From Isurus oxyrinchus (taxonomy: Eukaryota), in assembly GCA_026770705.1 (NCBI GenBank), contig JANJGN010000034.1, forward strand, positions 5,704,001 to 5,768,000: DNA of 64,000 bases, in the 5' to 3' direction. The translations under genes were made by a program, and so were the position numbers. The stretch's first letter is position 1. Every line of letters begins with the position of its first letter. The notes beneath the pieces are model-generated. The model was not told where the DNA came from. It saw only the letters and a list, made by a program, of their open reading frames with translations, and did not search any database. Positions 2,325 through 63,708 of the stretch are shown in pieces.

Positions 2325-2360
2325 ATTTACGTAAATTAAAAGAGGATGTGGATAACAAAG
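2325..2360 (+). CDS. Micro-exon 1 (36 nt), (D)LRKLKEDVDNK
   Basis: tttctaccttccag|ATTTACGT...AACAAAG|gtaatg; phase 1-1. The first residue depends on an upstream exon that is not seen. Confidence 0.88.
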
Positions 2361-2929
2361 GTAATGACAATCGTGAGGATAATGATATTGACTGTGCCAT
2401 TTACGATTCATGTTAATGTGAAAGTACTTGCTTCGTTATCACATCTTTATGTTAAATATAGCTCCGATGTTGATTTACAGGAGCGTTATCAAATTTGAAA
2501 ATCTGGAAACTATAATTAAGCCTGGATCATCGGGTCATAGTTAGGTTCCCTGACCGAATAAAATCAGCTTGACTACTCTTTGGAAAATATCTACAAAATT
2601 TTAATTGGTACCCAAATATTATTGGCAATCAGTAATTATCAATGTTGAAATCAATTTGAAAGAGCAGTGAGCATACTGTTGACACAAAATGAACTCTGGC
2701 TGTGGACTTCAATATCTAAAGTAAGGAATATATATATAACATCATTACTGAAAACATGCAGAAGGGCATAGATCTCAGGCTCTTTCTGTTTGTCGTAGTG
2801 GGATCGAACACAGGCTTTAATGGAGTCTTGTGCAATGACTTCAATTTAACTGTCGCAGATATGCCCATCAATTTATCAGTAGTACTGAGCTGCACATATG
2901 CTTCGTGAGAAGTGAAACATGCCAAATAT

Positions 2930-4090
2930 TAGAGCATAAGATAAAGGAGTAAGGCACATCATATAGACACTCAAGCTTTATCTGTATTCTGCAACACTCT
3001 GATTTGCCTTTGGCCTTAACATAAGCTGTACAGCTGCTGTTAATACCAGTTGATTTCCCTGGAATCCAAAAAATACTTTTATCGAAGCCTTAATATATTC
3101 AAGGTCTGAATATCCACAAACACTTCAGTAGACCATTCAAGAGATTCAGAACTGTGAGAGTGAACACAATCTTATAATTGTGGGGCCTTATGCTGCGACT
3201 TTTCTTCCAGTGTCCCAGGTTCTGAAACCTTTTCAAATAATCTCCCAATGTGTACCCTACTTCAGAATGTTATGTATTTCAATAATATGTCGCCACACTG
3301 ATGAAAATTCTAGAAAGTATAGGCCAAATCTACACAGCCTCGCATCAGAGGGTGACCCTTTAATACAAGATAGCAAGGTAGTGCACCTGTGGTGTACAGC
3401 GCCCAGATCAAGACTAACCATCCTGAAACATGGCGTCCAATTTTGCACACAACTTTCACGATGTGGCCTCACCAAACCTTACAATACTGTAGCAAGACAT
3501 TGATTCTTATACTTCAATACTGTTGCAACAAAGATCAAAATGTCACTTGGGTACTCATTTCTCTGCTGCGCATCCATGCTAACTTTGTTTAAGTTTTCCA
3601 TCTCCGAATACACCTACATCCCTCTGAGCATTAACCCATGATAGACTCATGGCTGTACAAACGTTCTAATTTCCTATTCTTAAGATCAAAGTGAGTAACC
3701 CCTTAAACCTATACATAATACCACAGCAGCCATATTGTTGTCCACTCACTTAACAACTGTGTAATTACTTTAGAACCTTTTCGTCTCCTTCTCACAGCTT
3801 ATATTACCAAGCAGACGTGCATTTTCCTGAATATGGTACTTTGTTTCTTCATTTAGGGCATGAATGTAGATCACAAATAAATGAAGCCCTAAACATCATC
3901 ACTGCGGCACTCCATCAGCAACGTTGTAAATTGATAATTTCATGTTTGATCCTATTCTGTTATGGTTGTCCGATAATGAACTCTGTATCCACGCTCTTAC
4001 AAACATTCAATTACATGAACCCACAGTTGCTTTATTAGGATTTGCTTACTTGCTTATCGAATGCCATTTGGAACAACAAATATATTGCTA
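2930..4090 (-). mobile_element. Decayed CR1-like LINE fragments
   Basis: Minus ORF 3257-3475 MVRPHRESCVQNWTP matches the LVRPHLEYCVQFWSP motif of CR1 ORF2. Confidence 0.7.
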
Positions 4091-7000
4091 AAGCATCAGA
4101 CCAGGATAGCCGAATGCAATACCCCCCATGACACAAAGAATGAAGTCAGGAGAAACATGGAGCTAGCTTTGTAGGAGCACAGATTTGCCTGTGGGTTGTA
4201 GAGCTAGCAGAGGTTATAAAATGAATGTATAGTTCCCTGGAGAGCGGTCAAACGAATTCGGAGAATTTTTAATTTAAAATCTTATGGACCTGGACTTGTG
4301 CAAGTGAGTTCCTGGATGAACTGAGTTTGGTGTTGTTACATTTTGGCAGCCATTGGTGATTGGAGCAACAGATGTAAATATTTAATTAGTGTTACATTTA
4401 TTCACAAAGTTAAAAGTTGCAAATGTATATCCCCAAACTCGGAAGCCCACCACCAGATTCAACAATTGTCTATTGAAATGTGTTCAAAAAATTGCCCAGT
4501 GTGGGGCACAACGATAAACAAGTAAACATAACGTACACAATGAACACTTTTTCTCTCTGATATAAAGAAAACATAACAACTATTTTCACAATATTTCAGC
4601 ACGCACTGATAAAGGACAAAAATTACATTACAAGCTTTAAAGCATTAATCACGCGACCCCCCTTTCCTAGGACCCCCAGGCATATTGTGTTATACATTTT
4701 GTTTTTACAGAAGAATCACAGACGAAGCACGCTTCAATTTGATCTTGGACATAACCATTCTTTATGTGTTCGCCGCTGCAAACTGAATCCTGAATCTTTT
4801 AGTTTCACTCATAGCTTTGTAGAGGTATCCTCTCCGACAAGCAATGGAGATTTGGGCAACATTTAATGGGCAAATAGTTTTCACTATGTACCCCGCAAAT
4901 AATCCCTGTTAAAACAACACCTCCTATATCACTTGCTTTCACGAGAGTTAGGGTTTCCGTAGCTAAAGTTAATTTATCATCTTGAATATTACCTGCACTT
5001 CCCAAGCTAATGGACCACAGATCAAATTTTTACAATTAATACCACTGTGCTGAAATGCCCGTAAGGAAGGTTGGCATGAGAGGCATCAGGAAAATATAAT
5101 TCGTTTCTTCTTAATTCTTTTTTGCAAAATATGCTGGAAACCTAAAGCCAAAGTTGTTTTGTTTAAGATTTTGAATTTTAATTTTCTCTGAAAATATTCT
5201 GGAATCCATCTTGTTCCCCTCACAGGCTTAGTAATTTGAACCAACACATCAAAATTAAATTATAATACTGCCTTTTCTTGTGTAAAACCAATTCAAATAG
5301 CTAATATCAAACTTCCGAAATGTATTTCTCCCCTTCATTAGATGTGAATTCATCTTTCTGTGATGGGCTAACACGTCTAACAAGACAGAAACAACAGTCT
5401 CTAAATAAGATTGCTGATGGAAACTTGGGTGTGAGCTTTAATGTTTAATGACTAAACAAATATATTTTGAAAGAACCCGATTCCTACCTTAACATTTTCA
5501 ATTGTGTATGGAAGTATTGATAATGCATTCCCCCGATCGCTCAGTGCGACCTCTTAACAAAGCAGAAACATGTGGAAATGCCTGAAAGTTTCGATATTGA
5601 TGGAACTGGAACTTTGTTGGATTTGCTTGTAGTTGTTCACTGTCTATGTTCAGAAAGGCAAATTTCATAGAAAACAATCATATCCTGGAGACCAACAACT
5701 CAGGTCCACAATACAATTGTTTAGTTTCAGTTCTACATTGCTTAACTTTTAAGGCGCTTTGAAAAGAAAATAAAAATCTCTGTATTTTTCACCCAACAAA
5801 AAGGACTCTTTAATGTCAATTCATCTACAATTCCAGCAATATGTTGCGAGTAAGGGACGGGCGAAAGGTACCTCAGAACTTCTTATGCCCACGTGTGAAA
5901 GTCCACACTGACATTTGTATATATTATAGACGGTTTGCGTTATTTTTTCTCTCTCTATCTCAATGCAAGACAATGGCAGAAGTGGTGATAAGCTTTAAAT
6001 CAAGGGAGAGGAAATTGTCTGCACAGTTTGAAAACATTTTTCAATCTGATAGTTGGCACACGATTTTACTAACAACTGTCTTCCCTTCTGATGAGAAAAG
6101 TCACATTTTGTTAAACAGAGGCACTTATTCACTGATTGAATGAGGTGAAGAATCAATGAAATTCAAGAAATTTATGATTCTATTTGCAGTTTCGTTTACT
6201 CATCGTTTTCATGAAATCGTTACTAGAGAGAGGGACAGAAAATCAGTACAGGACTCTGCTAGTAATGATAATGTAAACTAAGCCAAATTTTTGCATGCAA
6301 TCACCACTGAATGTGTGAAGCACAATGTGTATGATCCTAAAAAAGTAAAAAAAAAACAAATAGAGTTAATTGATTATGCTATTGGGTTGACCCTCAGTAC
6401 CAGATGAGCCTGAATAATACTGGGGAGCATTACTTTAAATTTGCAGAGATCACCTGGTGTTACAGAAGCTAGTGATCATTTTTTTTGGTGTTTCAATGGA
6501 AATTTTCTATATCATTTCAGCAAATCTTTCAGGCTAACAGTGAAGAGCAGCCTGGTTTGGCAGGAATGTGAAGTTGAAGTTAAAACAAGATCCTCCATGA
6601 CTTTATTGAATGGTGGGACAAGCTCGTGGGGTACAGTGGCATGCTCCTGCTTCTAATACGTAGGAAGGTATGTTCGTAATCCAATATCATCCCCGATCTT
6701 GGACAATTTGACCTGATTGAATTCGTAGGTAGTTTCCTTATTTCTGTTACTCTCCTCTACATCAATTCATAAGTACCTACTAAAGGCCAACCTCACTAAT
6801 ATACAAGCAAAAAGGTATGTTAGCTTAATAGGCCGTATGGGATTTTCCTCTAGTGCGCTGGTAAACGTGCAGCAGCTCACCATTATCAACCTCGGTTTGC
6901 TGCAATCGACAGCTCCACAAGGCAAATCTCAATCAGAGAGAATCCAGTCTCAAACTCGGCACCTAGCTCATCATTAGCATCATAATTGTTATATAAATAT

Positions 7001-8199
7001 TATATAAATTGAGTGATGCCTACTGACTGACTGCTCTCACTGACATGTACCTATTCATCCTGTTCACACATCATAGCCTTTGACTGTATATTCTGTCTTG
7101 TGAACAAACTGCAGTGTTCACGTCACTGAGTTTCATTTTCGATGCAATGGGATCCATTAATGGATAAACAGGCATTCTTTTCGAGAATGGAATATTTATT
7201 GTTTTCTAAATCGATTTGCCTTAGCTTTTCTCTAGGCACATGCTGATCAGCTGCTGAACAGACTTTAAATTTTATGTTCCTCACTCCACGCCCGACAAGC
7301 ATCCCCAAACCCCCTCACCCTCCCTTCCAACAGCATCACCCTACATCACTCATCATCACCACCACAACCCCTCAAAGTATTTTGAAAGCGTTTATTTTAT
7401 TCTCTGTAATTTTACTCAGGAGGGAAGAAGGTTGTTTCCTCATTCTGTGTCCCATATCTATCCGTAATCAAATAACGGGGAACCTAACTCGTAGCCATAG
7501 GCCAATTCGCAATGACTGATACCAGCAGATTTATTTGTCCTGCCCTTAGTCTCAAAAAAGTAAGAATGATATCACTGAATTTAGATTGTGGGGGCCCTCA
7601 GACAAATCAAACATAATACTTTTATCTCGTTTCTAGTGAGACCTCTCGAAAACAACTTTGCACTACGAGTAATAGTCGTAAGAGCTGGCACCATTCACTT
7701 CTAATTAAATGTGACCTCCTGAAACACACTTGACATCAAATATGACCTCAGGTCAGGCTGAAACTCGTTTGGTAAACGAAAGATAGTGAAAATTATAATT
7801 TGGCTAATGCCACAATCACAGCTTACCTGTGATTTTTGGTTTCCAATTACATTTCCTTTGGTTGCCAATGGAGCAAATCCATCAATCAATCCAGGGTGAG
7901 GGGTGTCTGCCCAAGTTGCTGTTACAGGGAAACACTCTAAACTCTTTTAAAAAGTAACTGGATCTGCACCTTAAGTGGCCTAAGCTGCAGGGCTATGGTC
8001 CAGGCGCAGGAAGGTGGGATTAGACGGGCACCTAGCAATCCTCAGGCTGGCAGAGCCATGATGGGCCGAATGGTGACCTTCTGTACTCTAACTTTTCTAT
8101 GGTTCTATAATCGTGAGGATAAACCTTTGTCACAGCTTGGTCTTCGGCAAGTGTAATAAACATCACTATAGACATTTGTTCACAAAATGTAGGTATTAG

Positions 8200-9760: not shown

Positions 9761-10384
9761 TGAAGATAAAAATATATATATATATTGACAATATCGCCGG
9801 CCCTGGAAAATCAGTCAATTTACAGAATTTTTTTTTGTATCTTCGCACACACTGGTCGGTTTGGAGAAACCTTATTTTCGTCATCCACCGTTATTTGGTC
9901 AAACCTACGTTTCCTTCTGCAACTTCAAAATCATTGGCTTCTTCATACACCAGGCTACTTTCGCCAGTTTCTTTGCTGTAATTGAATGTCAGATGACCCC
10001 GTTTCTCACCGTATGCACAGTCCAGGACAGTGTCCAGGCAATGGGTGCTCGACAACAACAGGGTGGTCCAGGTGCTTCATCAGTGGAGAGCTCCAGCACC
10101 ATTCATAAAATTTGACCTGATCGTGGAGGTAATTTTCAGTGACCTCCAATAAGGAATTTTCCACGGCCTCAAATCGGATCCTGGCTGCAAGCGCAGCCCA
10201 AAGCATGCTTCAGGCAGCATTCCGATTCACTGAAGCTTGAGAATGGGCATCGAGAAAAAAAAAATAGGTTGGAACTGGTGCATAAAGAAAGCCTGCCAAA
10301 ATATTTAGATCGCCCAGTTAACATCCAGAACATAAAATGCCATGAATATAAACTGTGCAGTGGAATTTTACACTGAAATTAAAT

Positions 10385-11421: not shown

Positions 11422-11448
11422 CAAAAGCATTAGCTGAAAAGAACGATG
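11422..11448 (+). CDS. Micro-exon 2 (27 nt), AKALAEKND
   Basis: tatccttatag|CAAAAGCATTAGCTGAAAAGAACGATG|gtaagt; consensus donor. Confidence 0.88.
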
Positions 11449-15743: not shown

Positions 15744-15779
15744 AATTAGCCAAAATGGCCGAAAATGTGGATAACTTAG
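15744..15779 (+). CDS. Micro-exon 3 (36 nt), ELAKMAENVDNL
   Basis: ctctttatgctttacag|AATTAGCC...TAACTTAG|gtgaga. Shares GTGGATAAC (VDN) with exon 1. Confidence 0.9.
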
Positions 15780-17082: not shown

Positions 17083-17109
17083 AACAACAAATCAAGAAGT
17101 GTGAAAGAG
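17083..17109 (+). CDS. Micro-exon 4 (27 nt), EQQIKKCER
   Basis: gtttgtttttag|AACAACAAATCAAGAAGTGTGAAAGAG|gtaaac. Confidence 0.88.
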
Positions 17110-20700: not shown

Positions 20701-20736
20701 AGATAGCAAAGCTGAAGGAAGATCTGACTGATTCAG
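20701..20736 (+). CDS. Micro-exon 5 (36 nt), EIAKLKEDLTDS
   Basis: tttctgttttctatccag|AGATAGCA...TGATTCAG|gtgcaa. KLKED motif as in exon 1; weak donor. Confidence 0.87.
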
Positions 20737-21164: not shown

Positions 21165-21191
21165 AAAACAAGCTGAGGACGTGTGAGCAAG
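21165..21191 (+). CDS. Micro-exon 6 (27 nt), ENKLRTCEQ
   Basis: tttattacgtag|AAAACAAGCTGAGGACGTGTGAGCAAG|gtacat. Same xxxLxxCxx pattern as the other 27-mers. Confidence 0.85.
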
Positions 21192-23539: not shown

Positions 23540-23575
23540 AGGTAGCACGGTTGAAGAACGACCTTCGGGACCAAG
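23540..23575 (+). CDS. Micro-exon 7 (36 nt), EVARLKNDLRDQ
   Basis: ttctgtttcaatttcag|AGGTAGCA...GGACCAAG|gtatga. Similar to exon 5. Confidence 0.9.
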
Positions 23576-37902: not shown

Positions 37903-37929
37903 GAGGTGAACTGAATCAATGCAAGAAAG
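37903..37929 (+). CDS. Micro-exon 8 (27 nt), GGELNQCKK
   Basis: tgttaatttcag|GAGGTGAACTGAATCAATGCAAGAAAG|gtaaat. Confidence 0.87.
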
Positions 37930-41350: not shown

Positions 41351-41372
41351 AACACGTTTGTTTTTTTTTCAG

Positions 41373-41408
41373 AACTAGAAGATGCAAAAGTAAATTTAAA
41401 AAAAACAA
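41373..41408 (+). CDS. Micro-exon 9 (36 nt), ELEDAKVNLKKT
   Basis: T-run then cag|AACTAGAA...AAAAACAA|gtgagg. Confidence 0.87.
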
Positions 41409-43660: not shown

Positions 43661-43687
43661 GCGATCAGCTGGATCTATGCCAGAAAG
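43661..43687 (+). CDS. Micro-exon 10 (27 nt), SDQLDLCQK
   Basis: gtttgctttcag|GCGATCAGCTGGATCTATGCCAGAAAG|gtacgc. Similar to exon 8. Confidence 0.87.
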
Positions 43688-46990: not shown

Positions 46991-47621
46991 GGAGAACGGT
47001 CCTGTTGCAGAGGGGGAATGGTTTGGCACTATTTTGGAACGTAATGAGCCATTAAATCCCGAAAATGTTGAGCTTTTTCCACGAGGTCATAATTGGTTCG
47101 TTTCCTTAACTCTACTTATGAACATCTAAACATGCATGTTAACTTTTATCAATAACAAAATCTTTTATTTTAAATGTATTTTTTTTAAGTTAAGGTAAAA
47201 ACAACTGCTTATGCAAGACAGTTTCCCCGTTCCGCTGATGATAAAATTAGAATGATATGATCCTGTTGATGAAAGAATAGGCAATAACAATTATTGTGGT
47301 TTTCCAAAATATCAATGACGTTAGCGATATTGATAAATTCTAATAGTTATGGGCATTGTTATGGCGCTTTTAGGGGTGTTGATGAATACAATAACAAGCA
47401 TTTTAGTTATCAGTACTTGCATAATTCTATTCACAATAGCAAAACATTCTTTTTCTTTAAGTTTCAAAGCAAATTTCTCCAATCCAATACAAAAGGTTAT
47501 TATCGAAAATCATTTAACATTCAGCCTCAGATGTATTTGCAAACCTGTGTGCGGGTCATGAGCTGTTCCTGTTTTCAGAATATATGGGTTTTATGAATGG
47601 TTTATTTCTGTCTCATTTCAG

Positions 47622-47657
47622 AGCTGGGCAATGCCAAGAAAGCTTCAGATGGCTCAG
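47622..47657 (+). CDS. Micro-exon 11 (36 nt), ELGNAKKASDGS
   Basis: tttctgtctcatttcag|AGCTGGGC...TGGCTCAG|gttatc. Paralog of exons 14 and 17; weak donor. Confidence 0.8.
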
Positions 47658-50600
47658 GTTATCATGCATTAAATGTTTATGGAAACGAAAATGTCCTTGC
47701 TCAACCTGAATTATAACTGGGTTACCAATCATAAGTTTTTGTTGATGTCAATGCAAATTACATTCCGGCTGGGCATATAAATTATCCCCGTTACTCTGTT
47801 CCCCACAGATAAACCTTGCCACATTTCTCCATAATGTGAGGAGTACATTATCGGCTAATGTTAGTAAAATTAAAGATGCGTAGAATTTTTAATGGACAAT
47901 AATACTGAGTATTAGGATTACCTTAAACCTAGTTAAAACTTGATAATTTTTTAAACTGGCTGAAATATTTAAAAACATATTGCAAGAACATATTTTACTA
48001 TAGGGCAAGTAAAAGAATAGGTCATGTAAACGCTGTTCCTTTGAAGCAGAGAGAGAAGAAAGGGTATGGACAATGTCGAAATGGCAACTGCGTTTGGCCA
48101 GTATGTTACATGTGTCTTCATTGTAAGACATTCAAGCTCCATCCCTGAAGTTAAAATTTAGAGTACAACAATGTATCATGCTTACTAGAATTCTACTGAG
48201 CTTTGATGGGACCACATCTAGAACACTGTATGCTGTTTTGAACATAGTAAGTTTTGGGGAGGTGATTGCATAGTGTTAATGACACAACATCAATCCAAAG
48301 GAGCAGTCTTATATTACGAGAGCACTGGATACAAAGCCACAACACTACAGCTGCTGGAATTGGAACTTAATTAATAACCTAATAGTATAGCTAATGTCTC
48401 ACTATTGCTGGCCATAGTAATGACATCGGTTGTTGCAAAAACTCAACTGGCTTCATCTTTATGGAAACAAATCTGCCATCCTTACCTGGGTTAATCTACA
48501 TGTGACACCAGGCTACACCATTTGCCGTGCGTGCCTGGGCTCTCCTAAAGGTGACGCCAAACCCACAGCAATGGCGTTGGCTCGAGCCTGACCTCGGAAA
48601 TGTTCTGGCAATCCTTTCAGTTCCTGGGTAATTAGAAAGGGCAACAGATAGTGGCTTTGCCACAGGCGACAACATCCCATTAAATATTAAGTAAAATTCA
48701 AACAATGATAAATTTACATTGCAGGTGGGAAAGAGATACATAACTGGATTGGTCCCTGTGATGAGAAGCTGCCTTATTATAAGTTGTGGAGTAAATTTGT
48801 TGTATATTCTCCAGAAAAAAAGGAGGCAATCACATTGAAACATACTAAATCTGAAGGTGTTTGATCGTGGGAGGGTGGGGGACAATTAGGCTTGTTTTCC
48901 ACTGTACTGGGAGTTGGAAACAATGGTGTACATCCACTAGAAAAGGAAGAGATTTCATAAGGCAGATGTGCGATGGCATAAACACACAACAATTGAGGCA
49001 GATGTTTGAAATTGTCAAAACGATGGCTTTAGGTCATCCCGTTTTTTAATCAGGCAAGGTGGAGATTCATATCGCTTTACCCTTTCATGGAAACCAGTGG
49101 TATGGGCAGCCGGCACAAAAGCAGTGTCAGCTCAAAGGTCTGAACCATCCATCCCTGCTTCTATTTTATTTGTGTTTCCGTATTCTTATGAATTTGTTTC
49201 AAAAGTTACAAATATGACTAACTAACGGCCGTAAATATATGGCTACAAATCATGGACGTAAAATAAAGCGAATAACGGCTTAGGTCAGGATTTTTCGGAC
49301 GGCAGCATTTCCCTTCCTGTCACCTGAAGCGTCGGTGTGGAACACATGCCCACCCATTCTGCCTGACCCGCAGCCGTTTAACGTTCAGCAAATGTTATTT
49401 GCTTCAGAAGAAAATTCTTCATTTCATTCGGAGTTAGTTCAGCTTCAGGGAACTGTCAGTCATCCTCATAGGCGAGCTGCTATTTTTTTCCTTTCAGTTC
49501 TTGCGGCACTGGAAGCTGCAGTGCGCATAACTGCATCTACAAGCAGTCCCCCAATATAAGTCCCTGAGGTTCAGAAATATATAGGTTTTGGTTGTGTCAA
49601 GGTGTGACGCCTGAGGAATGTTAGAACAAACTATTTCAATGCCGGCAGAAGGGCGGGAAAGAGGAGCTCCCTCAGGCATCAAAATAGTCCGGTGTGGCGC
49701 CCGGGGTTAAAGCAAGGAGCTTGATGGATGCGACTACCCACCAAAACAGCGTTCCTGCAAATCAACTCACCACGTCCTCCCCCACAAGAACAACCAAAAA
49801 ACCCACCACACCCCTGTCCATTCCACTTCCACCCGAAGCATGAAATATGCTAATAAATAGCATAATATTTTGCCTCCTTCCTAGCTTGGGCAATTAGATA
49901 CATAATGTAGTGTTCACGAGCTACAAAGCAATTCTGGATTTAACTTGGCCACGAAAGAAACTGGAGGAAGTACAGAATGGGTAACATTATTGACGAAGTA
50001 GAGCATTGCAGACTTCAAGCGAGAGTACACCCATAGTGCTCACGTATTGAATCTGATTGGTTAGTGCTAAATAAAACATCAATGATCAGATTATATTGTT
50101 ATGTTTCTCTGAAAGAGCAGCAACTAGTCAGAACGTTTAACCCGAGTAGACGGACAAGAAAAATACAGAGACGTGCAAGGGTTTTAATTGTTATAATGGG
50201 CGACCACTTTTTAAATATAGAATGAACAGCAATCTCAGGAAGAAAGTTAACTCCCGTGGGAACAAACGGACAATTGGAGCATAGAGAGAAAAAGCCTCAT
50301 TTAATGAGGCAGGGATTTATGGGGAATTTTTTTACAGGCCACCAGCTCAATAATAAAATGCAATTGACACAAAGATTTCAGCTGCTGGAAACTGGCAATT
50401 GAACAGCCATGCTCTTCACGAGCTCGTGAGATTCGAGGAATCGGCAGTGAACTACAGGTGAAATACAATGCAGAAATTTGATTGATTTTATTTGCCAGAA
50501 AAACAAATGGAAGAAACTGAAAATAACATCTACCTTTCTAAACGGGACAACTGAGCCGGGGGCTTAGTGGGCATTTGTAGACAAAATTAGAATGTGAAAG

Positions 50601-52586
50601 GCCGCCTGTAAAAGCTCTTCAGTAAGCAAACAGGATCCACAGTTTATAAATGTTGGAAGATATTTGTCACATTAGATGTTGAGAAGGAGCCCATGCTGCA
50701 TGCCCAAGTGTTTTTTTTTTAGCTTTTCACAGGAATTCATGTTTATGAGCAAGTGTTGGGTGTGTTCCTACTCACCTGTCAACGTAGTACCCTGACTCTC
50801 ACAATCTCTGCTCAATTTACATTGAATTGCAGCCACGCAACAAAGAGAAACAGGGAATATGGACCAGCTGGGCTATGGCAAGGTGATTTTTAACCCTCTG
50901 TAAGCCACTTCGCTAAAACACGTGATCATAATTAGTGCCCACATCAAATCGTTGAAGGGAGATCGAAAAATCTGCTTATGTTGAAACAAATCCTGGTGTC
51001 AAATCCGCCTATAATTGCGCCCCTCCCCCCATCACAACCACCACCACACCCCCCCAAACCCCGCACCCCACCCCACCCCGTCCCCCGCCGCCCCGCATCA
51101 CAGTGGGTCGTTCTCCAAAATGACAGCTTTACAAAATATTTGTTCTCCTCTAATTCTGACCAGATTCGTAAGATAATTCGCCACTGTGTAACAGTTCACG
51201 CATTACCACACTCTGCTTAGTCTCTGGACATGTTTGATCCTTCCATGAATCTTTGTCCCTCCATATTCATCTGCTCTATATAAGAGACGTCGTTAAAATC
51301 TGTGCCACTAACAAATTATTTGGTCACATATCACAAAATACCTTTCTGTGCCTCGGTGTCAATTTACACCACTGGGATTCCTGTGTGCACCTTTGGTTAT
51401 GATTTTCATTATGTTGCCACGAATTTTTGCCTGAATATGCCATATAAACGGCATTGATTGAACAAAAGCAAAATACTCCGTTTTCAGAAAGCAACATAGA
51501 GATTGCTGAAATAAAAGTTTAGCAATCTGGAGGCATCTGGGGAGTTTGAAAGAGAGTTACGGGTTGGAATGGAACATGATTCTTCTTCGAAATTGAAGAG
51601 ACTTTAAAAGGTGATGGCTTTTATGCTGTTGTAATGAGACAGAGGGTGTAGAACAAATTTAAAATGTGGGATATATTGGAGATGGGGACAGATTAAGCAA
51701 GAAGAATGTATGGGACAATGGACAACGGGACCCTTAATGTATCTAGTGAAAATAAACCAAAAAAAAATCAGACTGAAAGTGAGCAGATAAAAATAAAATG
51801 CTCCCCCAGTGTTTCTGAAGTATAAGGAGGAGCTATTATAAAATTCAGGTTACTTCCGATTGAAAAGCGATGGTGTACATTGGAAAGTCTGTCGTGGACA
51901 CGGCAAATTGGGACAATGAATTTCGGTAATGATGCTATGTATACCCTAATAGATGGTATGAATTGAAGTGATTCGGACAAAAATGGGCAGTCGGAAAAAA
52001 TTTCGGCTTTCAGTCTCCATCACAATAAACTTCAGAGCTCAATATATGAGGGAAATGGGATGAAGTTGTGAATGCATTAAGCATCACGAATCTCCGAGGT
52101 GAACATTGTATCCAGCCATCTCAACTGTACGGTGGAAGATGTACATTCCTCAAAAGAAAGTATACAATATGAATAAGTATAAGTAGCGAAGTGTATTAAT
52201 ACAGCTGAAGTGGATGAAGAGATTTTGCGATAAATTTCAGAACGTCTGAAGAGGCAGTCTGACATCATGCAGTCTGTTGATCCGTAAACAACTTCAATGG
52301 TCAGCGTAGATAGACAGGTAAATAATTTCGTTACATTTTTGAAACATTGTTGTGTGCAAATTGTGCGCCAAGAATCCAAATTGGCTTTAGTGAATGAATA
52401 TAGAACTCATTCTGTTGACTATGTTTCGTCCTTGGACGATCTGCATTTGAGAAAGAGGGAAGTTAATTCATTCTGTAATAAGTGCTTAGAATATTGGATA
52501 ACTTTTTTTTCAGCAGTCATGGAGAGAGTCATGTAAATTAACATGAAATTCTGCCAAAATAAAATAGCGCTTTTTCGATCTTGCAG

Positions 52587-52622
52587 AGCATAAAGAATGC
52601 AAAGACTCTTTAAAACTCTTAG
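52587..52622 (+). CDS. Micro-exon 12 (36 nt), EHKECKDSLKLL
   Basis: ctttttcgatcttgcag|AGCATAAA...ACTCTTAG|gtaaaa. Confidence 0.8.
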
Positions 52623-53292
52623 GTAAAAAAGGCATAATTTTTCTGTACGAACGTCTAGAGGGCTAATCGCAAAATGGAGCTAGCAGAAAATAGCGACACA
52701 ATGTTCATGTGCAGCAAAAGAAAAGCAACAGCTAAAGTTGAATGAATGGTAAGGACATGGGAGGATGTGAGAGAAACTAGGCCATGGCGGCCAGCGAATC
52801 TGCTGAACGATTGAACTGAACATGGCGGATCAACTATCTTAAAGCTATTTTCCGTCTCCTTCCCCGTGCCCATTGATGGCATTAATGTTCATAGATCTTT
52901 CTATCTCTGTCCTGACCATAGGCTATAACTGAGATTGAACATGGCCTGTGGCCGATAATGTAAAGGCTACCTGACGGTTGTGTTAGGAAAGTTATTCTCA
53001 TCTCAGTCCTAATTGGTTTCCCCTTGTCCTCAAACTATGTGCACTAGTTCACGGTCAAAACTTCTCTCCGTACTCCACTTAAAATGTTATAAGTTTTAAT
53101 GAAAATACCTCTACTTCCTTTAAATTCTGGAAAATACAGGCCAAATTAGCCCATCCGCTCCTCATAGAACAGTCCCACAATTCGCGTTGGGTGGGTTTGG
53201 GGGGTGTTGCTGTGGCGTGAAAGGGAGATTAATTTGTTCCTTCATGGTAGACTTTCATTCATTCCTCTATACTCTTTCTTCCTTTTATATAG

Positions 53293-53319
53293 AAGATAAA
53301 TTGAGTCAGTGCCTGGATG
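53293..53319 (+). CDS. Micro-exon 13 (27 nt), EDKLSQCLD
   Basis: ctctttcttccttttatatag|AAGATAAATTGAGTCAGTGCCTGGATG|gtaatg. Confidence 0.88.
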
Positions 53320-55149
53320 GTAATGTATTAACTGTTTTCTACCGTAACTTAATAAATCAACAGTAGATCTAAATTTCAGAATAAGATCATTGGGGAGGGA
53401 ACATCCACTTTGGCCTTTTGACATAACAAACCAAAACTTATTCTGAGGCCCCACCACCACTTTGCCCTGATATTGCATTAGCTTTGAATTGCCCCTACAT
53501 TTAAATTTTATAAAATTCATTGTTACCGTAGAACTCCCGTGGTCAAAACATTTTAAAGTTCTACTATATAATGTTTACGCTGGAACTTCTTGGGTCTGTA
53601 GCTGTCAGGGAATCCAGGAGGCAAAATCGAGTCCTGTAAATTGTTTTGACATTCAAACGCATTTGATGAAAGCTTAGAATTGGCAGATGACTTTTTTTCA
53701 CGCTTTACTTTAAGATTTAAAATAGTGAATTAATGATTGTGGAAGATGGGTTCTTGCATATATAAAGTGGATAAAGAGTTCTAATTCTTTAGAAGTGTGG
53801 GACATGCAGGGAGCTTTCTTTGAAAACGAACACTGCTTTAAAATAGAGTTTAGACTTGGTTCAACCTACTTGTACATCGTCCTCCACCAAACCAAGACTA
53901 CACTAGCTAGCAGTTTTCTTTGCTTTATGGCCTGTTACAGGTGTAAGGAATAAATATATATTTTTTGGTTTATGAGGAATTTGGTTTGTGGGGATAAGTA
54001 TAGGTGGATCAGTGCTTGATGTAATTATATTTGGATTCAAGAGGATATCAAATGGAAATAATGAAATTAAGCTAGATGCTTGACATACTAATGAGTAAAT
54101 ATAAATGTTGGCTTAGCATGTAATGTGTGAAAGGAATTTACATTTTTTTTAGTTAAAGAAAGAGATCTGAATTTCATTGGGACCTTAGTCTGTTTTCAAC
54201 TTGCCAGATAAGCAAGGTTAAGGCATGTTCTTATTTTTCCCAAAGGTTACAGACAATATATTGGCAGAATCGAGAGAAAATTTATAAGGAGAATGAAAGG
54301 CTATTTTCAGAAGGCCATGTAAGAACAAACGGGAGAGGGCTAAGTGGCCATACAGAATCCTCCAGCATTTTTGCATAGGATTGCTATATACTGAAACTGA
54401 AGTTGGTGAATATGTATTTGAAATTCCACTTTACAGTGGCTATTGTGTTAACTTGCTAGTTCTGTTTTAAGTGCAAAATCTGTTCTGCGATTTTGCTTAA
54501 AAAGGAATGTAACTGATAGTCAGGTTAATTAGGAAAGTTTGGAGTTATTATAGTAGTGAGGAATTGAAGTTTTTTACATTTTTGAAATATTTTATTTTGT
54601 TCATGAATATTTCACTTCTATCTTTAAATTTTCTATTGGTGGAACTGATATTACTGAATTCAGTTTAGACGTCATGCAACGAAGGCAGTCTGCAAAACTG
54701 TTTCGATAGTGTGATGAAGTTCACCTTGTGCATTTGTTGCGCCTGGCACATGTCCTCTCCCATTTCATAACACAGGTAGCTTGTTGCCATTTCTTAATCA
54801 CTTTTCAGCTCGCCTCCAGGTAGTTTTTTTTTATATTATTGGCAAATAAAAGACCTAGTTATAATGTACGGCTGGCAGGGTCGTTTGGTAGCTATGGAAT
54901 CAGCAACACTTGTTGCAACTCTTTTTAATTTCATCCGCTTTTTCAGTGGTTCAGCTTCTGAAGGGAATTGTTCGGAAATATTTTGGAACTTTGGAAGAGA
55001 ATGATCCATTTAATCTCGAAATCATGTTCAGCTTTTTCAATGAATTAATGATTGACCTGTGTCCGTAAGTCTAATTTTCAGGACCTGATGATATACATTA
55101 ACTTATTTAGTTAAGAAACCTCGCATGTCCTGTGTGAGTTTTTTTATGT

Positions 55150-55577
55150 TTTTGTTTGAGTGAAGTTATGAAGATATTGATAACAAACATGCTGGTCACT
55201 GTCTTCATCAACATCCCTAATATCGCCATAGCAATTGCCATCACTGTCATCATTTATGAATATAGCACTCTTCGTTGATTTTTCGGAAACCCACAGTAAT
55301 TATCATGGCCTATGCTTTCATCATAAGACAAAACAGACAACTGCCACTGCAAGGCGTTTTCACCATTCTGCTGATGATAGAATTATAATGATAATGTCCT
55401 GACAATGAAAGCATAGGCCGTTATAATTACTGTGGTTTTCCAAAATATCAACGAAGAGAGCCAAATACCTAAATGGTGACAGTGATGGCAATTGTTACGG
55501 CGATATTAGGGATGTTGATGAAGATCGGTGATGAGCATTTGTGTTATCAACATCTTCATAACTTCATTCAAAAAAAC
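55150..55577. repeat. Inverted repeat with ~170 bp arms (~55150-55321 and ~55405-55577) and an ~80 nt spacer
   Basis: tgaagttatgaagat...tcttcatcaacatccctaatatcgcc...ggcctatgctttca is the reverse complement of tgaaagcataggcc...ggcgatattagggatgttgatgaaga...atcttcataacttca. Confidence 0.93.
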
Positions 55578-55756
55578 AATGCCTTGTTTTTTTTAGTTAA
55601 CAAAGGAAAATGCTATAGTCCAGTACAAAAGGTTATTATTGAAAACAATTGAACATTCAGCCATGGATGTAGTAGTGAATGTCGGTGCGGGACATGCACT
55701 GTTGTGTAAATCAGAATGTCTGCGTTGTTTGAAGGGTTTTGTTCTTTTCGTTTCAG

Positions 55757-55792
55757 AGCTGGATAATGCCAAGAAAGCTTCAGTCGGTTCAG
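55757..55792 (+). CDS. Micro-exon 14 (36 nt), ELDNAKKASVGS
   Basis: ttcttttcgtttcag|AGCTGGAT...CGGTTCAG|gtagtc. Confidence 0.85.
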
Positions 55793-58700
55793 GTAGTCAC
55801 ACAATAAATATTTTTGTAATAGAAAATAGTCTTGCCCGTTGTTGCCAGATCTCAATTTATAACACGGATGTCAATCACACGTTTTCGTCGATCTCAATGC
55901 AAGATAATCTTTGGCTGAAAGTATAAGTAACCCAATCCCTTTGCTACCAAAACGTAATCCCTATTACAATTCTCCAGAATGTTTGAGAGTATATTTAAGG
56001 ATAATATTGCGTTATTAAAAGTTGATATCAACGTTGCAAAGAACTGCAAGACTGAGGATTTGGAGTGCCTTGAAAACGAATAAAAACTTCATAAAATTTA
56101 AATAGAAATATCTAAAATATACAAAAGAACACATTGTAAGAACGCATTTAACCACATGGAAAGTAAGGGACTTGGTTAAGTTAAGGTTTCTAAAGATAGA
56201 ATAAAGGATATGGACTATCCGGAAAACATAACTGTGTTTGACCGGTATTTTACCTGTGTCTTTATTGCAAAACATACAAGCTCCAAGCAAGAAGATAATG
56301 TTTTATTGATGGCAAAAGAAAATTCCGTGATTGATGCAGAAAATTAATGTCAACAGCCATATATGTATTTGAGAAGATTAAGGGTCCAATACTCAATGCA
56401 TCCCTTGTCCTGATGGTTTACAGTTCTAAAGGAAATCGCACCATAGTTACTGGATCTGATTTACTAAACTTCCAAAGATTCTGGAACTGATGTATCAAAT
56501 TGAATATTTGCACAGCACAATTGTGAAGGCATATTGATGATGTCACAATATTAATAACCCAGAGGACCAGCCTAATGTTACGGGAGCACTAGGTACAGAC
56601 ACACAACATGACAGCTGAAAGATTTGGAGCTCAATTAATATCCCGAGTATAGCTGTAGTCTCATTATTTGTGGCTGTAAAACCAACATTGTTTGTCATAA
56701 AAACTCTTCTGGCTTCATCTTATTGGAAAGAAATCTATTGCATCCTTACCTGGGCTGATCTGCATATGACACAATATTACACCATTTTTCATGCATACCT
56801 GGGCTGTCTAACTTGTGATGCCAGACACACAGAAATAACATTGGCTCGTGGCTGCCATCGGACATTTTCTAGCAAGACTCTCAGTTCCAGGGAAATTAGG
56901 AACGAGTAACACATAATGACCTTGCCACAGGCGATCATATTGCCTTAAAGCTTAAATATTTTTTAAGGAAGGATAAACTTTTATTGTAGGTGTTATAGCC
57001 AACTATAACTGGATTGGTTCCTGTGATGAGATGCTGCCTTATTATGAGTTGCTGGTTAAATTCGTTGTATGTTCTCTCGTAAAGACAGGAGGGGGTCAGA
57101 TCAGACCTTACTAAATCTGAAGGGGCGTGTACGAGGCAACGATGTTAGATTGTTTTTCCACTGACCTGGGGATCGGATACAATGGAGTAAATACTCAAGA
57201 TAAGGAACCGATCGCTCAAGGCTGATATGCAATCATATTAATGCACTATAATTGCTGCGAATCTTTGATCTTGTCAACAAAGATAGCTTTGGCTCTTCAC
57301 TTTTTGAAAATACCTAAGGCTGAGATTGACATAACTTCACGCTTTCTTGGAACCATTTGTCAAGGGGATCCAGCGCACATGTAGATTAAGCTCAAAGGTC
57401 TGTGCCATCATTGCTGATGCTTTTATTTGTGTGTTCTTGTGTTCTTGTGAGTTAGCTTCCAAAATAGTAAATCTGATTATGTACCTGCTGCAATTATATG
57501 GCCACGAATCATACTGGACTTACAAATCAAGAGTGAATAGCGAATTTGTTTAGTAGTTTTCGGATTGTGTTTTCTCCCTTCCTGCCACATGAAGAGTCCA
57601 AGGAGACACATGCTCACCATTTTATCCTGACCCGCAGCCGTTTTTACACTCAGCTGAAGTTAATTGCCTTTGGGCGTGACTTCTAGATTACATCCGTGAG
57701 CAATTTCACCTCAGGGAGCTTGTCGGTCAATCTCATAGAAGAGGTGCTTTTTTTGTTTAAAGTTCCTGAGGTACAAGAAGCCAAAGTGGACATAACCGAG
57801 GCTACAAGCAGTCCCTCGACATAAGTCCCAGGAGCCCAGGAAAATTTAAGTTTTAGTCGGGTAAATGCGTGTGGCCTGAAGAGTGGTAATAAAAGGCGTT
57901 TCGATTGCTGTCTAAAGGGATGGGTCGAGGAGCTTCTCAGGGATCAGAATATTCCTATGTGGCGCCCAGTGTTAATCTTACCTTGCTATTTGGGTATGAC
58001 CGCCCACCGACACGCCACTCCAGCAAACCAACTCCCGACCCCAACCCGCGGATTGGCATCGACGTCACCCCACTGCCATCACCACTCATACTATCTCTCC
58101 TCCCCTCGCAAAGCACATTCCCGCCCGAAGCATGGAATGTGATCATTTTTGGCCTCCTTCATTGCTTGTGCAATAAGGGAGACCTGATGCAAAAATAGGC
58201 AACACGAGCTACCAGGCATAACTGAATTTACCATGGTCACAAAAGAAACGGGAGGAAGAACAAAAGGGGTAGCAATATTCACCAAATAGATCACTGCGGG
58301 CCTCGAGCGAGATTGGGCCCATAGGTGTGAAGATGTCAATCTGATTGGTTACCGCTAACAAAAACTTCAGTGGTACGATTATACTGTTGTGTTCCTTCGA
58401 AGGAACACCAACTAGTGGGGAAGATGTTGCGGTAAAAATGGGCAAGGACCATACAGAGTCGTGCAAGGGTTATACATTTTTTAAACGGGTGACCACTTAT
58501 TTTGATATAAACTTAACAGCCATCATTGATTTTTTTTTAAATCCTTGGAACAAACGGGCAATTGCAGCATTGGCAGAAATTGGCTCAGTTAATGAAGCAG
58601 AGAGATGTGGTGAAAGCTTGACAGGCACAGCGTGGAGAAAAAAAATGCATGTGACTCAAAGCATTCAGATTCTGAAAAAATGGAAACTGCAGAGCGATGC

Positions 58701-60780
58701 TCTTGAAGAGGGAGCGGGAATGGAGGAAGGGGCGGATAAGCTACAGATGAAATTTAAGGCAGAGAATTGATTGTTTTTTTTTTGCCAGAAAAAGGAAGGG
58801 AATCAATAGAAAATAACCTCTACACTTTTTCGAAATGGGGCACATAGAGCCCGGGTGTCACTGGACCTGTTTCCACAAAATGTGAAAGTGAAAGGCCACC
58901 CGAAAAGTTCTTCGGAAAGCAAACACTATCACGGTTTATAAACACTGGAAGAGATTACTGTTGAAGCATTAGATGTTGAAAGATGGCACACGTTGCATGG
59001 TGAAGTGTGTTTAAAGCATTCACAGAAATTAACACTTAAATGCAAGTGGTGGGTGTGTACAGATTCTCCTGTCAACATTAATGACCTAACTGCTAATTCT
59101 ACAGTCAATTGCATCAGTGCAACTCATTTAGAAAGGCCAGTTGGACCAGCTGGGCTATGGCAAGACTTTGCTTTAACCCCCTGCAAGCCCCTTTGCTGAA
59201 ACACGTGATCTTAATCCTGGCCATGTCAAGTCACTGAAGGGTGGCAGAACAATCTAATCATGTTTAAATAGGTCTTGGTTTCACATCTGTCTATCAAGTT
59301 GGACACCCCCATTGCTGCTGATCGTTTTCCAACATGACAGCTGTACGAAATATTTGTGCTCCTACAATTCTGCAGATATTTCTATCAACATTTGCTACCA
59401 CTTAACAGTGACACCGCCTTCTGCTGAGTTTCTGAACGTATTTAATACTTCCTTCACCATTTATCCCTCCAGATTAATCTCATCTATATTAAAACTCTCA
59501 TTAAATACAGTCTTTCACAAATTATTTGGTCACACATCTCAGCATATCTTTCGATGCCTCGTTGTCAATTTGTTCCACTGGGATTCCTGTGTGCACGTCC
59601 GGCCCTTATTTGAATTATGTTGCAATGAGGTTTAGTCCAGAATGCTTCATTGAAACACAAGTTAATGTTGATTGAATAAAAGCAAAATACTGCATTTGCT
59701 GATAAAGTAACACAGAGATTGCAGAAATAAAAACTCGGACATGCGGCAGCAACTGGAGAGTTCGAAAGGGCGGTAGGGTTTCGAATGGAACATGATTTTT
59801 CTTCAAAATTAAAGGGAATTGAAAAGATACTGGTTTCTATGCTTTTGTAATGAGAAGGGGGATGTAGAACCAGCGAAAAACTGTGGAGTGTATTGGAGAT
59901 CGGGAGTGATTAAACAACAAGAATGTCATGAAACGCAAGGCAAAGGGAGCCTCATCGTATCTAGTGGAAAATAGAAACATTAATCCAGACATGAATGTGA
60001 GCAGATAAAAATAAAATGTTTCCCAAATACTTATGAAGTTTATGGAGGAGCTGTTTTAACATTCAGGTTAATTCTGATTTAAATACGATGGTCAAAATTG
60101 GGAAGGCTTTCGTGGACATGTCAAATTGGCACAATCATTTTTGTGCACCACAATAGATGGCAAAAATGGGATATCGGAAAATACATCCAGCTTAGAATCT
60201 CCGTCAAATAGATTTCAGTGCCCAATAACTGAGGGAAATTGGATTTACTTGAGACAGCTTTAAGCAGCATTAATCAGCGGGGTGGACATTGCTTCCAGGT
60301 ATCTCAAACGTGCGATGGAAGATATCCATTCCTCAAAAGAAACTGAAACATTATGAACTGAAATAAGTAGCAATAGTTAGAACTACTTTGAAAGAGCTAA
60401 ATTGTAGGAACAGATTTTGGGATAAATTTCAGAAGTCTCAAGATGCATTCTGACGTCATGGATTATATTCAACCATAATCAAATTTAATGGTTAGCATAG
60501 ATAGATGGGTAAATAACTTCATTATGGTTTTTGAAACATTGCTGTGTGCATATTGTGTCCAAATTCCCACATGACTGTACACGTGTGTTCTTCGAAATCA
60601 ATTAATTGACTGTTTTTTTTGTTTTTGGACGATCTGCTTTTGAGGAAGAAGGTGTATAGACAGAAGTTGAATCATAAGTATTTAGAACAATGGAGAATAT
60701 TTTTTCAGCAGTCATGGAGAGTCCTATGAAATATCTTGAAATGTTGCCAGAATAAAATGGATGCCTTTTCAGTCTTGCGG

Positions 60781-60816
60781 AACTCAAAGAATGCAAAGTT
60801 TATTTAAAAATCTTAG
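60781..60816 (+). pseudogene. Micro-exon 15 (36 nt), ELKECKVYLKIL; probable pseudo-exon with acceptor AG>GG
   Basis: Duplicate of exon 12, preceded by tcttgcgg instead of tcttgcag. Donor gtagaa is retained and the frame is still open. Confidence 0.65.
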
Positions 60817-61472
60817 GTAGAAACGGCATCATTTCCTGTATAAACTCCAACACGGCTATTCCCAAAATGGAACTAGCAGAAAACAGCGAATCAATGTTTG
60901 TGTGCAGCAAAAGAACAACGACATCCAAAGTTGAATGAGTGGTAAGGAACATAGGAGGATGCAAGAGGAACTAAGCCATTCAGGCTATCGAAACTGCAGA
61001 GCGATTCAACTGAACATAGCTAATCGACTTTCTTAAAGCTGTTTTTCGGCTCATTCCCCGTACCCTTTGAAGACATTAGTGCTCATGGATCGTTCAAACT
61101 ATTTTCTAACCATAGTCTATAACGGATTGCACACAGCCTGTGGGGGATAGTACATTTGAGTGAGGAAAGTTATTCGCATCTCATTCCTAATTGGTTTCCC
61201 CTTATTCTCAACCTAAGTGCACTTGTTCTACGTCGAAAATTCTCTATCTACTCCATTACAAAAAAGGTTGTAAGCTTTATTGAGATTACCTCCACTTCTT
61301 TTAAAGTCTGGAAAATAAAGGCCCACTCACCACAACCCCTCCTCGTAGGAGAGTGCCACAATTTGCGTTAGGTGAGGATGAGGGGTGTTGCTGCGAGGTG
61401 GAAGGGAGATTGATATGTTTCTTCATGGTAGATATTTATTCATTCATCTATTCTCTTTTTACTTTTGCATAG

Positions 61473-61499
61473 AAGATAAATTGAGTCGCTGCCTGGATG
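61473..61499 (+). CDS. Micro-exon 16 (27 nt), EDKLSRCLD
   Basis: ttctctttttacttttgcatag|AAGATAAATTGAGTCGCTGCCTGGATG|gtaaag. 25/27 identical to exon 13. Confidence 0.88.
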
Positions 61500-63672
61500 G
61501 TAAAGTATTATGTGCTTTCCCTCTTAACTTGTTAAATCAACAGCAGAGCTAACTTGCAGAAGGAGATTATTGGGCAGGGAACATCCACTTTGGCACTTTG
61601 ACATAACAATCTATAACGAATTCTAAGGCCCCACCACCACATTGCCTTGATAATGCAATAGTTTCAAATTGCCACCACATTTTAATTGTGTTAAATTCAA
61701 CTTGCCTATAGAAATCCCACTGTCAAAGCTTTTATTTTTATATTATACAGTACTATTTTGCAACTTTTTGCGTATGCATCTGGCAGCAAATTCACACAGT
61801 GAAGTCCGGGCCAGTGACTTGTTCTGATATTCAAGCACATTTGATGAAGACATTGAACTGGCAGATGACTTTCCTCACGCTTTTACTTAAATTAATAACA
61901 GTAACCTAGTGATTCTGGAAGATGAGTTGTTGCATTTATGAAGTGGAAAAAGATTTCTAATTATTTAGAGCCATGAAACATACAGGGAGCTCCCATTGAC
62001 AACGACCTCCTTAAAAGTAGAGTATGGACTTGCTCCTCCCTACTTGTACATCGTCCTCCACCAAACCCAAACTATACTAGTTCGCAGCACTCTTTGCTTT
62101 ATGGCCTGGTGAATGTGTGAGGAAAATATAATAATTTTCTTTTTTTCTTTGTTTTATAACGTATTTGGTTTATGGGGATAAGTATATAGGTTTGTCGCTG
62201 CATGGCGCAGTTATATTTAGAATCAAGTGCATGTCTAATGGAAATCATTAAAATATTTTCCCCAATGTATATGCATATATATATAGAGTGGGGAAGATAC
62301 AGCTTGAAAGACCTATGGAGCAAAGTAATTTAGATACTGAAACGAGAGAAACATATGTAAAGGAGACTGAAAGGCTGTTTTTCAGAATGCCATGTAAGAA
62401 GTAATAGGAAAGTGCTCAGTAGCCTTAATGAATCCTCCACCATTTGTACCTCGGAGTGCTATATACTGAAACTGAGGTTGGGGAATATGCATTTGGAATT
62501 TCACTTTCCAATGGTTATTGTGTTAACTGGCTGGTCCTGTTTTAAGTGTAAAACCTATTCTGCATTGTTGTTTGAAAGGGAATGTAAGTGGAAGCCACAT
62601 TAATTAGGAATGTGTGGAGTTACTATATTGGTCAGAAATTTAAGTTCTATGTATGGTTGACATCTTTTATTTTGTTCTTGAATACTCTACTTTTAACTTA
62701 CCTTACTTTCTATTGGTGGAAATATTATTACTGAACTCAGTGTACACATCAGGCAATGAAGATAATCTGCATAACTGTTGTGATAGTGCGACAAGGTTTC
62801 CCTCCTGCATTTGTTGCGCCTGGCACATGTCATTCCCCACGTCATAATACAGGCACCTTGTTGCGATCACTTAATCACTGTTTAACACGCCTCCAGGTAG
62901 CGTTTTTTTAAAATTATTGGCAAATTATAGAGATAGTTATCATCTCCGGGTGGAAGGGTGTGGTGGCAGCGTTGACATTAGTAATGCTGCTTGTAACTGT
63001 TTTTTTATTACTCCCCCTTCTTTCAATGTTGCTGCTTCTAAGGGGAAATTGCTCGGAAAAATTTTTGGAACTTTGAAAAAGAAAAAGCCATTAAATACTG
63101 AAATCATCTTCAGCTTTTTCAAGAAATTCATGATTGGCCTGGGTCCTTACTCTAATTGCCAGGACCTGATAATATATGTTAACTTATTTAGTTAAAAGAA
63201 CAAGCATTTTCTTTTTGACTTTTTAAAAAAATACTTAATTTAAACCAAAACAGACAACTGACAATGCAAGGCGTTTACACATTTCTGCTGATGATAGGAT
63301 TATACCGACAATTTCATGATGATGAATGCATTGGCCACAATAATTAATGTGGTTTTCCAAAATATCAAAGAAGAGAGCGATGTACAGAAATGATGGCAGA
63401 GATGGCAATTGTTATGGCAATATTACGGATGTTGATGAAGGCAATGACGAACATTTCTGTTATCAATATCTTCAAAATTTCACTCACCATTCCGAAGCAT
63501 TGCTATTTTTAATTAACAAAGCCAAATGCTCTAATCCAATACAAAAGGTTATTATTAAAAACAATTGAACATTCAGCACGGATGTAGTTGCAAATGTGGG
63601 TGCGGTACATGAGCTGTTGCTGAAATCAGAATGTCTGGGTTGTTTGAAGGGGCTTATTGTTTCTCTTTTCAG

Positions 63673-63708
63673 AGTTGGATAATGCCAAGAAAGCTTCAGA
63701 CGGTTCAG
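63673..63708 (+). CDS. Micro-exon 17 (36 nt), ELDNAKKASDGS
   Basis: tgtttctcttttcag|AGTTGGAT...CGGTTCAG|gtagtg. 34/36 identical to exon 14. Confidence 0.87.

Follow-up and report, generated by a model that had tools for sequence, protein, structure and literature searches.

We analysed 64,000 nucleotides (nt) of the genome of Isurus oxyrinchus (4.98 Gb), positions 5704001-5768000 of contig JANJGN010000034.1 (C34), here called the window, in which an earlier note had described 17 very short exons encoding a coiled coil. Exon models trained solely on exons outside the window, with a score threshold of at least 11, found 16 canonical exons there, nine of 36 nt and seven of 27 nt, all with AG...GT ends and with scores of 15.5-40.3. 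Thus 16 of the 17 claimed micro-exons were recovered by models blind to the window and are real, while the remaining one (60781-60816) carried a GG acceptor. The 17 segments added up to 549 nt, joined without a stop and gave the same string of every seventh residue as reported, and the strict 36-27 alternation held for exons 1-11. After exon 11, the window array followed a 36-36-27 order and the first heptad register was lost. The reported extent of 61 kb fell far short: the array spanned about 1.5 Mb on C34, and the window made up 4% of the unit. From sequence, we infer that the window exons form the middle of one predicted 1.54-Mb cartilaginous-fish gene.

As judged by a generic splice-site scan of the plus strand, the window and its 200-kb flanks contained 22 candidates of 27 nt and 26 of 36 nt, and 0-5 at other lengths. 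Over 957,248 bases of C34, the same kind of score gave 22, 46, and 56 plus-strand candidates at 21, 27, and 36 nt, respectively, and 1-10 at the other lengths from 12 to 60 nt, while the minus strand gave 0-12 at all lengths. When the held-out models were run on the reverse strand of these bases as a null, scores of at least 14 were reached by no 36-nt and two 27-nt matches. Of 124 exon candidates, 118 were open in phase 1, against 46 and 63 in the other two frames. In a continuous 264-kb stretch, 60 of 70 steps were alternations, against a shuffle mean of 35.5, and none of 20,000 shuffles reached this number. Because of the length peaks, seen on the plus strand alone, the open phase-1 frame and the alternation statistics, a chance origin of the micro-exon array is excluded, as the earlier note had argued for chance splice pairs.

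The window exons were all phase 1 and on the plus strand (window numbering; held-out scores in brackets). Exons of 36 nt lay at 2325-2360 (32.9; paralog at C34:6792018), 15744-15779 (31.9), 20701-20736 (40.3), 23540-23575 (26.2), and 41373-41408 (31.4). They were interleaved with 27-nt exons at 11422-11448 (22.6) and, with a Cys at the heptad d position, at 17083-17109 (19.9), 21165-21191 (23.8), 37903-37929 (23.6), and 43661-43687 (15.5, the lowest of the set). The exons after these sat in a tandem genomic duplication of about 8.1 kb (47047-63962, plus strand), which comprised introns as well as exons at 69-80% identity and ran past the window end, and they are therefore not independent. Its first copy held a 36-nt exon found by the exon model (47622-47657), which was Ser/Gly-rich, lacked the second core Leu and is likely a hinge, a 36-nt exon with Cys at d (52587-52622; 34.9) and a 27-nt exon (53293-53319; 24.8). 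The second copy held a hinge-type 36-nt exon (55757-55792; 26.1) and a 27-nt exon (61473-61499; 23.0), and the third began with another hinge-type 36-nt exon (63673-63708; 27.1). The 36-nt copy at 60781-60816 (plus strand) is probably dead and skipped, because its acceptor reads GG instead of AG. Further 27- or 36-nt candidates at window positions 1133, 8046, 17855, 38423, 47809, 50733, and 54379 were dropped for a model score below 11 or for stops; the one at 50733 scored 10.6 and had a stop in its duplicate. The tandem unit also contained a palindromic element of about 425 bp resembling a miniature inverted-repeat transposable element (window 55151-55576 and 63319-63486), with arms 86-89% complementary. 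In the intron just downstream of the window there were minus-strand open frames (L013:3223-4016) resembling a Harbinger-type transposase.

The predicted gene began with a 111-nt exon (C34:4859457-4859567), its array extended from about 4.87 to about 6.39 Mb, and an intact B30.2 (PRY-SPRY) exon of phase 1 closed it at C34:6395819-6396339 on the plus strand. We read 743,753 of its 1,536,253 bases (48%), which contained 157 intact phase-1 exons (72 of 36 nt, 75 of 27 nt, and 10 of 21 nt) as well as 13 dead-looking and 10 weak exon copies; the reverse-strand null for these counts at the same threshold was two matches, and exon scores outside the window were inflated, as the training set included a large number of these exons. 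Adjacent 36/27 pairs alternated in 105 of 122 cases, and the median intron length was 2.3 kb. Extrapolation gave 324 (uniform) or 383 (stratified) exons encoding 3,300-3,800 residues, which at 0.148 nm per residue predicts a rod about 0.5 micrometre long. Single-heptad exons of 21 nt, often with Cys at d, formed a block inside the 36/27 array at C34:5.084-5.310 Mb, of which the edges alone were read.

The stretch from the 111-nt exon to the B30.2 exon was taken as a single unit because the latter has a phase-1 acceptor and because the span is delimited by a single 5' marker exon and a single B30.2 exon. It is very improbable that the span instead holds a row of several smaller genes or a pseudogene in decay. 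Such an arrangement could draw on the half of the span not read, on the 13 dead copies and weak dN/dS (the ratio of nonsynonymous to synonymous change) of duplicated exons, and on a downstream duplicate (6.456-7.497 Mb) that starts mid-array without a 111-nt exon. Yet 118 of 124 exons were open in one and the same frame, the B30.2 exon was intact and followed in both copies by poly(A) hexamers about 660-680 bases past its stop, and one marker exon stood at either end of the span.

At the 5' end, the 111-nt exon at 4859457 was the top-scoring of 44 open phase-1 candidates in 56 kb, and exons of this kind were found at 4.859 and 4.0055 Mb only. The match between the two was confined to acceptor, exon, and donor (70% at the DNA level, 14 of 36 residues, expect value (E) 7e-7), and their first eight residues were mostly hydrophobic in both paralogs. 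A candidate 30-nt hydrophobic exon lay 6.7 kb upstream of the gene's 111-nt exon, and the two joined gave a hydropathy peak of 2.7 over 13 residues and 1.5 over 19. A 13-residue peak would fit a signal peptide and not a membrane anchor. Since the hydrophobic start is common to both paralogs and the peak is of signal-peptide size, secretion is likely, by way of a candidate leader. The skate model P0152 also began with a signal-like stretch. No immunoglobulin (Ig), RING, or B-box domain was found in 62 plus-strand open frames of at least 75 amino acids (aa) in C34:4.8185-4.8735 Mb, and 20 frames from upstream of the 111-nt exon of the paralog were equally negative; in the same scan a control from elsewhere on C34 (L094) gave a V-set match at E 1.2e-10. 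A transmembrane exon before the array was not found either: the hydrophobic part was limited to the first eight residues, and 19-residue hydropathy was at most 1.5. Among the flanking exon kinds that the earlier note had named, B30.2 was thus present, and Ig, transmembrane, and lectin exons were not found at the 5' end.

The terminal exon confirmed the same note's hint at butyrophilin-type genes with B30.2, as well as its coiled-coil rod. It matched PF00622 (SPRY) with E 1.8e-13, whereas PF13765 (PRY) had no match at E 0.01, so that the PRY half is divergent. The best match to a PDB sequence was the B30.2 domain of BTN3A1 (E 6.8e-20), and the PDB matches were mostly BTN3 and TRIM domains. The predicted structure, with a predicted local distance difference test (pLDDT) score of 80.5, matched TRIM and BTN B30.2 structures with template modelling scores (TM-score) of 0.71-0.78. 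His351 of BTN3A1, described in passages of PMC7348870 as a B30.2-pocket residue of the BTN3A1-type phosphoantigen sensor, aligned to a Ser.

Every exon of the array was phase 1-1, so that the reading frame survives the gain, loss, or skipping of any of them. Three heptads (21 residues) are encoded by one 36-nt plus one 27-nt exon, and a single heptad by a 21-nt exon; the 36+27 pair is thus the register-keeping unit of the hydrophobic stripe. Leu, Ile, Val, or Met occupied the three a positions in 88%, 81%, and 91% of cases, with Leu dominating, while the d positions held Leu, Ala, Lys, or Cys. Cys reached 42% at position 4 of the 36-nt exons, 22% at position 6 of the 27-nt exons, and 57% at position 4 of the 21-nt exons. 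The overall composition was 4.0% Cys and 0.1% Pro, with very high Lys, Glu, and Asp content, and one N-glycosylation sequon occurred in 746 residues. The Ser/Gly-rich exon of the 36-36-27 unit likely forms a hinge.

These features suggested a secreted coiled-coil rod, encoded by one transcript, that is stapled by disulfides between d-position Cys residues and carries B30.2 heads which bind ligand, with the rod bridging targets; we put the probability of this reading at about 0.55. Outside the cell, the Cys residues at d of a parallel coiled coil would link its chains by disulfides. The B30.2 heads would sit in pairs and bind ligand, and the length of the rod would allow the molecule to bridge or cross-link its targets in a body fluid or secretion, in the way that collectins do with lectin heads borne on a stalk.

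The same composition could also belong to a secreted structural fibre, in which Cys-cross-linked rods make up the jelly or case of eggs, a sperm matrix, or mucus, with B30.2 acting in assembly and not as a sensor. The extreme length, a Cys content of 4% at core positions, richness in Lys, Glu, and Asp, near absence of Pro, and fast change of repeat number all suit this idea, but it is unlikely, since C34 carries at least five divergent B30.2 paralogs and C21 another two, as in recognition families.

Characterised B30.2 domains are nearly all cytoplasmic, and long leucine zippers joined to B30.2 are known from enterophilin, an intracellular protein. An intracellular or type II membrane-anchored rod, comparable to the cytoplasmic tails of chicken BG or to enterophilin, would agree with this location, with the predominance of BTN3 and TRIM among the PDB matches, with the single sequon in 746 residues and with the failure to identify a true first exon. 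We nevertheless regarded it as improbable, as the hydrophobic stretch of about 13 residues is short for an anchor, Cys is concentrated at d, and both paralogs with a 111-nt exon retain its hydrophobic start.

Duplicates and dead copies were both seen in the array, which grows by tandem duplication of intron-exon blocks and shrinks through splice-site decay of surplus copies. Breaks in the alternation fell in recent duplicates, such as the 36-36-27 unit of the window. Twenty-two intact duplicate exon pairs were 85.5% identical, compared with 79.2% for their flanks, and gave a dN/dS of 0.65, a value that reflects weak constraint and comes from non-independent pairs, one of them probably mis-paired. 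The B30.2 exon pair had a dN/dS of 0.45. Judged by these sequence comparisons, this is a fast-changing array under weak purifying selection.

Among 1,757 representatives of proteins matching the B30.2 domain at E of at most 0.001, the best single-domain matches were clusters from skate, catshark, elephant shark, electric ray, basking shark, and epaulette shark, together with one Logan record. In a quick tree of 70 rows selected from the matches, including seven genomic copies, 33 TRIM and 8 proteins bearing an Ig variable-type (IgV) domain, the family formed one branch of 16 rows that included all seven genomic copies (Shimodaira-Hasegawa approximate likelihood-ratio test (SH-aLRT) support 100), apart from the TRIM and IgV-bearing proteins. 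Relatives were found in Leucoraja (XP_055510696, 'TRIM69-like'), Scyliorhinus (XP_038668997, XP_038672308, and XP_038671249, 'TRIM39-like' or 'A33-like'), Callorhinchus (XP_042191566-8, 'TRIM58'), Narcine (XP_069775384-90), Hemiscyllium (XP_060706632), and Cetorhinus (XP_078422387). Some are also named butyrophilin-like, and the names appear to stem from the B30.2 match alone. An unannotated or mis-annotated protein had been proposed before; short predicted relatives are in fact present in RefSeq, but under misleading names. No RING, B-box, or Ig match was obtained in the seven family proteins scanned, although RING and B-box were readily found in TRIM matches. These chondrichthyan proteins belong to the same B30.2 clade at 33-54% identity and likewise have a coiled coil before B30.2, about 770 residues of sequence preceding the domain in the 945-aa catshark model, but their models measure 175-945 aa against the 3,300-3,800 aa predicted here. 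With a profile of the 21-residue unit, five of seven relatives scored above all 200 shuffles. Word-based protein searches returned no family member among longer proteins when queried with the B30.2 exon, only the query's own cluster when queried with P0152, and one family member (945 aa) out of three matches when queried with the alignment. A homodimer prediction for the skate relative P0152 scored 0.01 and gave no answer. No paper describing this family was found in a literature search with thin coverage of subscription journals. A 'zinc-binding protein A33-like' listed in a table of a catshark skin mucus paper (PMC10707392) was not tied to the family, as the name is common to true TRIMs.

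The short relatives bear on another possibility, that the gene is a cassette library from which each mRNA keeps a subset of the phase-1 exons, giving mostly shorter rods, an option compatible with secretion. All exons are frame-neutral, RefSeq isoforms of the relatives differ in steps of 6-9 residues with models of 175-945 aa only, and chicken BG tails vary by alternative splicing according to sections of PMC5938342. On the other hand, alternation in 105 of 122 pairs fits linear, mostly constitutive use better, and short RefSeq models would be expected anyway if annotation misses micro-exons. We therefore considered the cassette library possible but doubtful.

Several observations weigh against a secreted rod made from one transcript. 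No ATG-bearing first exon was identified upstream of the 111-nt exon, the upstream hydrophobic candidate exons of the two paralogs did not align with each other, and no alignment was obtained between the 111-nt exon and the N-terminus of the skate protein. The hydrophobic start was absent in five of seven family models scored, which may be 5'-incomplete. A first or terminal exon of a different kind could lie in the 52% of the span not read. Dead copies and weak constraint on duplicated exons count in the same direction, as does the size of the longest public relative found (945 aa). With the 21-residue profile, unrelated fish coiled coils scored 12-13 bits, equal to the skate and chimaera relatives, and three of seven relatives beat these controls. 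The joining of all exons into one mRNA is predicted from the genome, and no transcript was seen. A query of RNA data sets with window 52400-55900 listed none that contained it, and contigs from same-species RNA (four of five runs) on the last 9 kb of the gene covered repeats alone, neither the B30.2 nor a 21-nt candidate exon, and are uninformative on expression.

Compared with known systems, the predicted gene shares with butyrophilins and chicken BG the short phase-1 heptad exons and tandem same-strand paralogs, and with butyrophilins also the terminal B30.2 exon. It differs in that no IgV, IgC, or transmembrane exon was found, in its 36+27-nt unit and in roughly tenfold more exons; BG also lacks B30.2, and the BTN3A1 His351 is a Ser here. 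In the sections of PMC5938342 concerned with BG, heptad exons are mostly of 21 nt with 27-38 repeats, and their core residues fall on codons 4 and 7 rather than on codons 2 and 5 as in the 21-nt exons here. TRIM39, TRIM58, and A33 have the same succession of coiled coil and B30.2 and the same fold, yet here no RING or B-box was found, the rod comes from hundreds of micro-exons, and the B30.2 domains form a separate long tree branch. The gene is neither a butyrophilin nor a TRIM, since the upstream search revealed no exon for an Ig, transmembrane, RING, or B-box segment. By analogy, it likely works like a tenfold-scaled butyrophilin/BG tail moved outside the cell.

Secretion of such a domain has a precedent in vespryn/ohanin, which the relevant part of PMC4566206 presents as a secreted protein with a leader and PRY-SPRY; compared by description rather than by sequence, its N-terminal extension is short, unlike the rod predicted here. 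Enterophilin, compared in the same way from its known architecture, is far shorter. CD23 and other stalk proteins with a C-type lectin domain differ in that the terminal exon here encodes B30.2. Long repeated coiled coils followed by PRY-SPRY also occur in Megalops XP_036374758 (P0134, 712 aa), with a leader-like start, and in Amia MBN3300211 (P0067, 632 aa), with a membrane-anchor-like stretch. These designs are likely convergent, because their B30.2 domains fall outside the family clade.

Taken further, the data may point to an undescribed cartilaginous-fish family of secreted B30.2 proteins with stalks from hundreds of 36/27-nt exons, of which this member would cover 1.5 Mb with 320-380 exons and form a disulfide-stapled rod of about 0.5 micrometre, and to which the downstream duplicate may be spliced as an alternative 3' half, so that the unit would measure 2.6 Mb and offer a choice of two heads. 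We hold this whole picture tentatively, at somewhat less than even odds. The exon count of titin is given as 363, and the titin protein is about ten times the length of the predicted rod. If spliced as predicted, the gene would combine a titin-like exon count with about one tenth of titin's coding length, and it would be a test case for recognising hundreds of 21-36-nt exons across introns with a median of 2.3 kb. Its array illustrates how a coiled coil changes in length as exon pairs are duplicated or die while the heptad register has to be kept. The gene also suggests that many short 'TRIM39-like', 'A33-like', and 'butyrophilin-like' models of sharks, rays, and chimaeras may be 3' fragments of larger genes. 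If secreted on such a giant stalk, B30.2 would have found a new use, being known mostly as a domain of cytoplasmic sensors.

Further copies of the family were located by a B30.2 search in which 150 of 455 candidates were scored, and the copy positions rest on those. Family-type B30.2 exons were present on C34 at 2708644 and 3474122 (minus strand) and at 4.8165, 6.3958, and 7.4964 Mb (plus strand), and on contig C21 at 89722236 and 91348266; these paralogs, at least five on C34 and two on C21, shared 35-92% identity. No copy lay between 4.8165 and 6.3958 Mb. The positions of the two 111-nt exons and of the B30.2 copies define an upstream paralog with the same order over 0.81 Mb, comprising the 111-nt exon at 4.0055 Mb, Cys-type 36-nt exons at 4.58 and 4.62 Mb and the B30.2 exon at 4.8165 Mb. 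The downstream duplicate (C34:6455840-7496959, about 1.04 Mb) repeated the 3' part of the gene, with an intact B30.2 exon 92% identical to the gene's. It had no 111-nt 5' exon, and its start at 6.4558 Mb corresponded to 5.091 Mb of the gene (77% identity), in the middle of the array, so that it is a 5'-truncated duplicate. It could supply the gene's transcription unit with an alternative 3' half; the 59 kb between the B30.2 exon at 6.396 Mb and the duplicate had no exon-model match.

A frameshifted IgV-like exon at C34:6424334 (L049:8334-8700) was considered as a possible first exon of the downstream duplicate and rejected: an intact paralog of it is located 17 kb past the next B30.2 exon, which assigns it to a neighbouring gene. 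An IgV exon follows each of the B30.2 exons at 6.396 and 7.496 Mb, broken at 6424334 and intact at C34:7513577 (L094:1502-1852; V-set E 1.2e-10, with a weak PVRIG-like match), and a further relative was found at C34:13.17 Mb. A probable broken G-protein-coupled receptor gene, seen as fragmented open frames with weak 7tm_1 matches (E 8.5e-5 and 0.0045), lay between the copies at C34:6416001-6416807 (L049:1-807). Most of the 150 scored B30.2 matches fell in one very large cluster of TRIM-type exons at C21:82.9-118.2 Mb.

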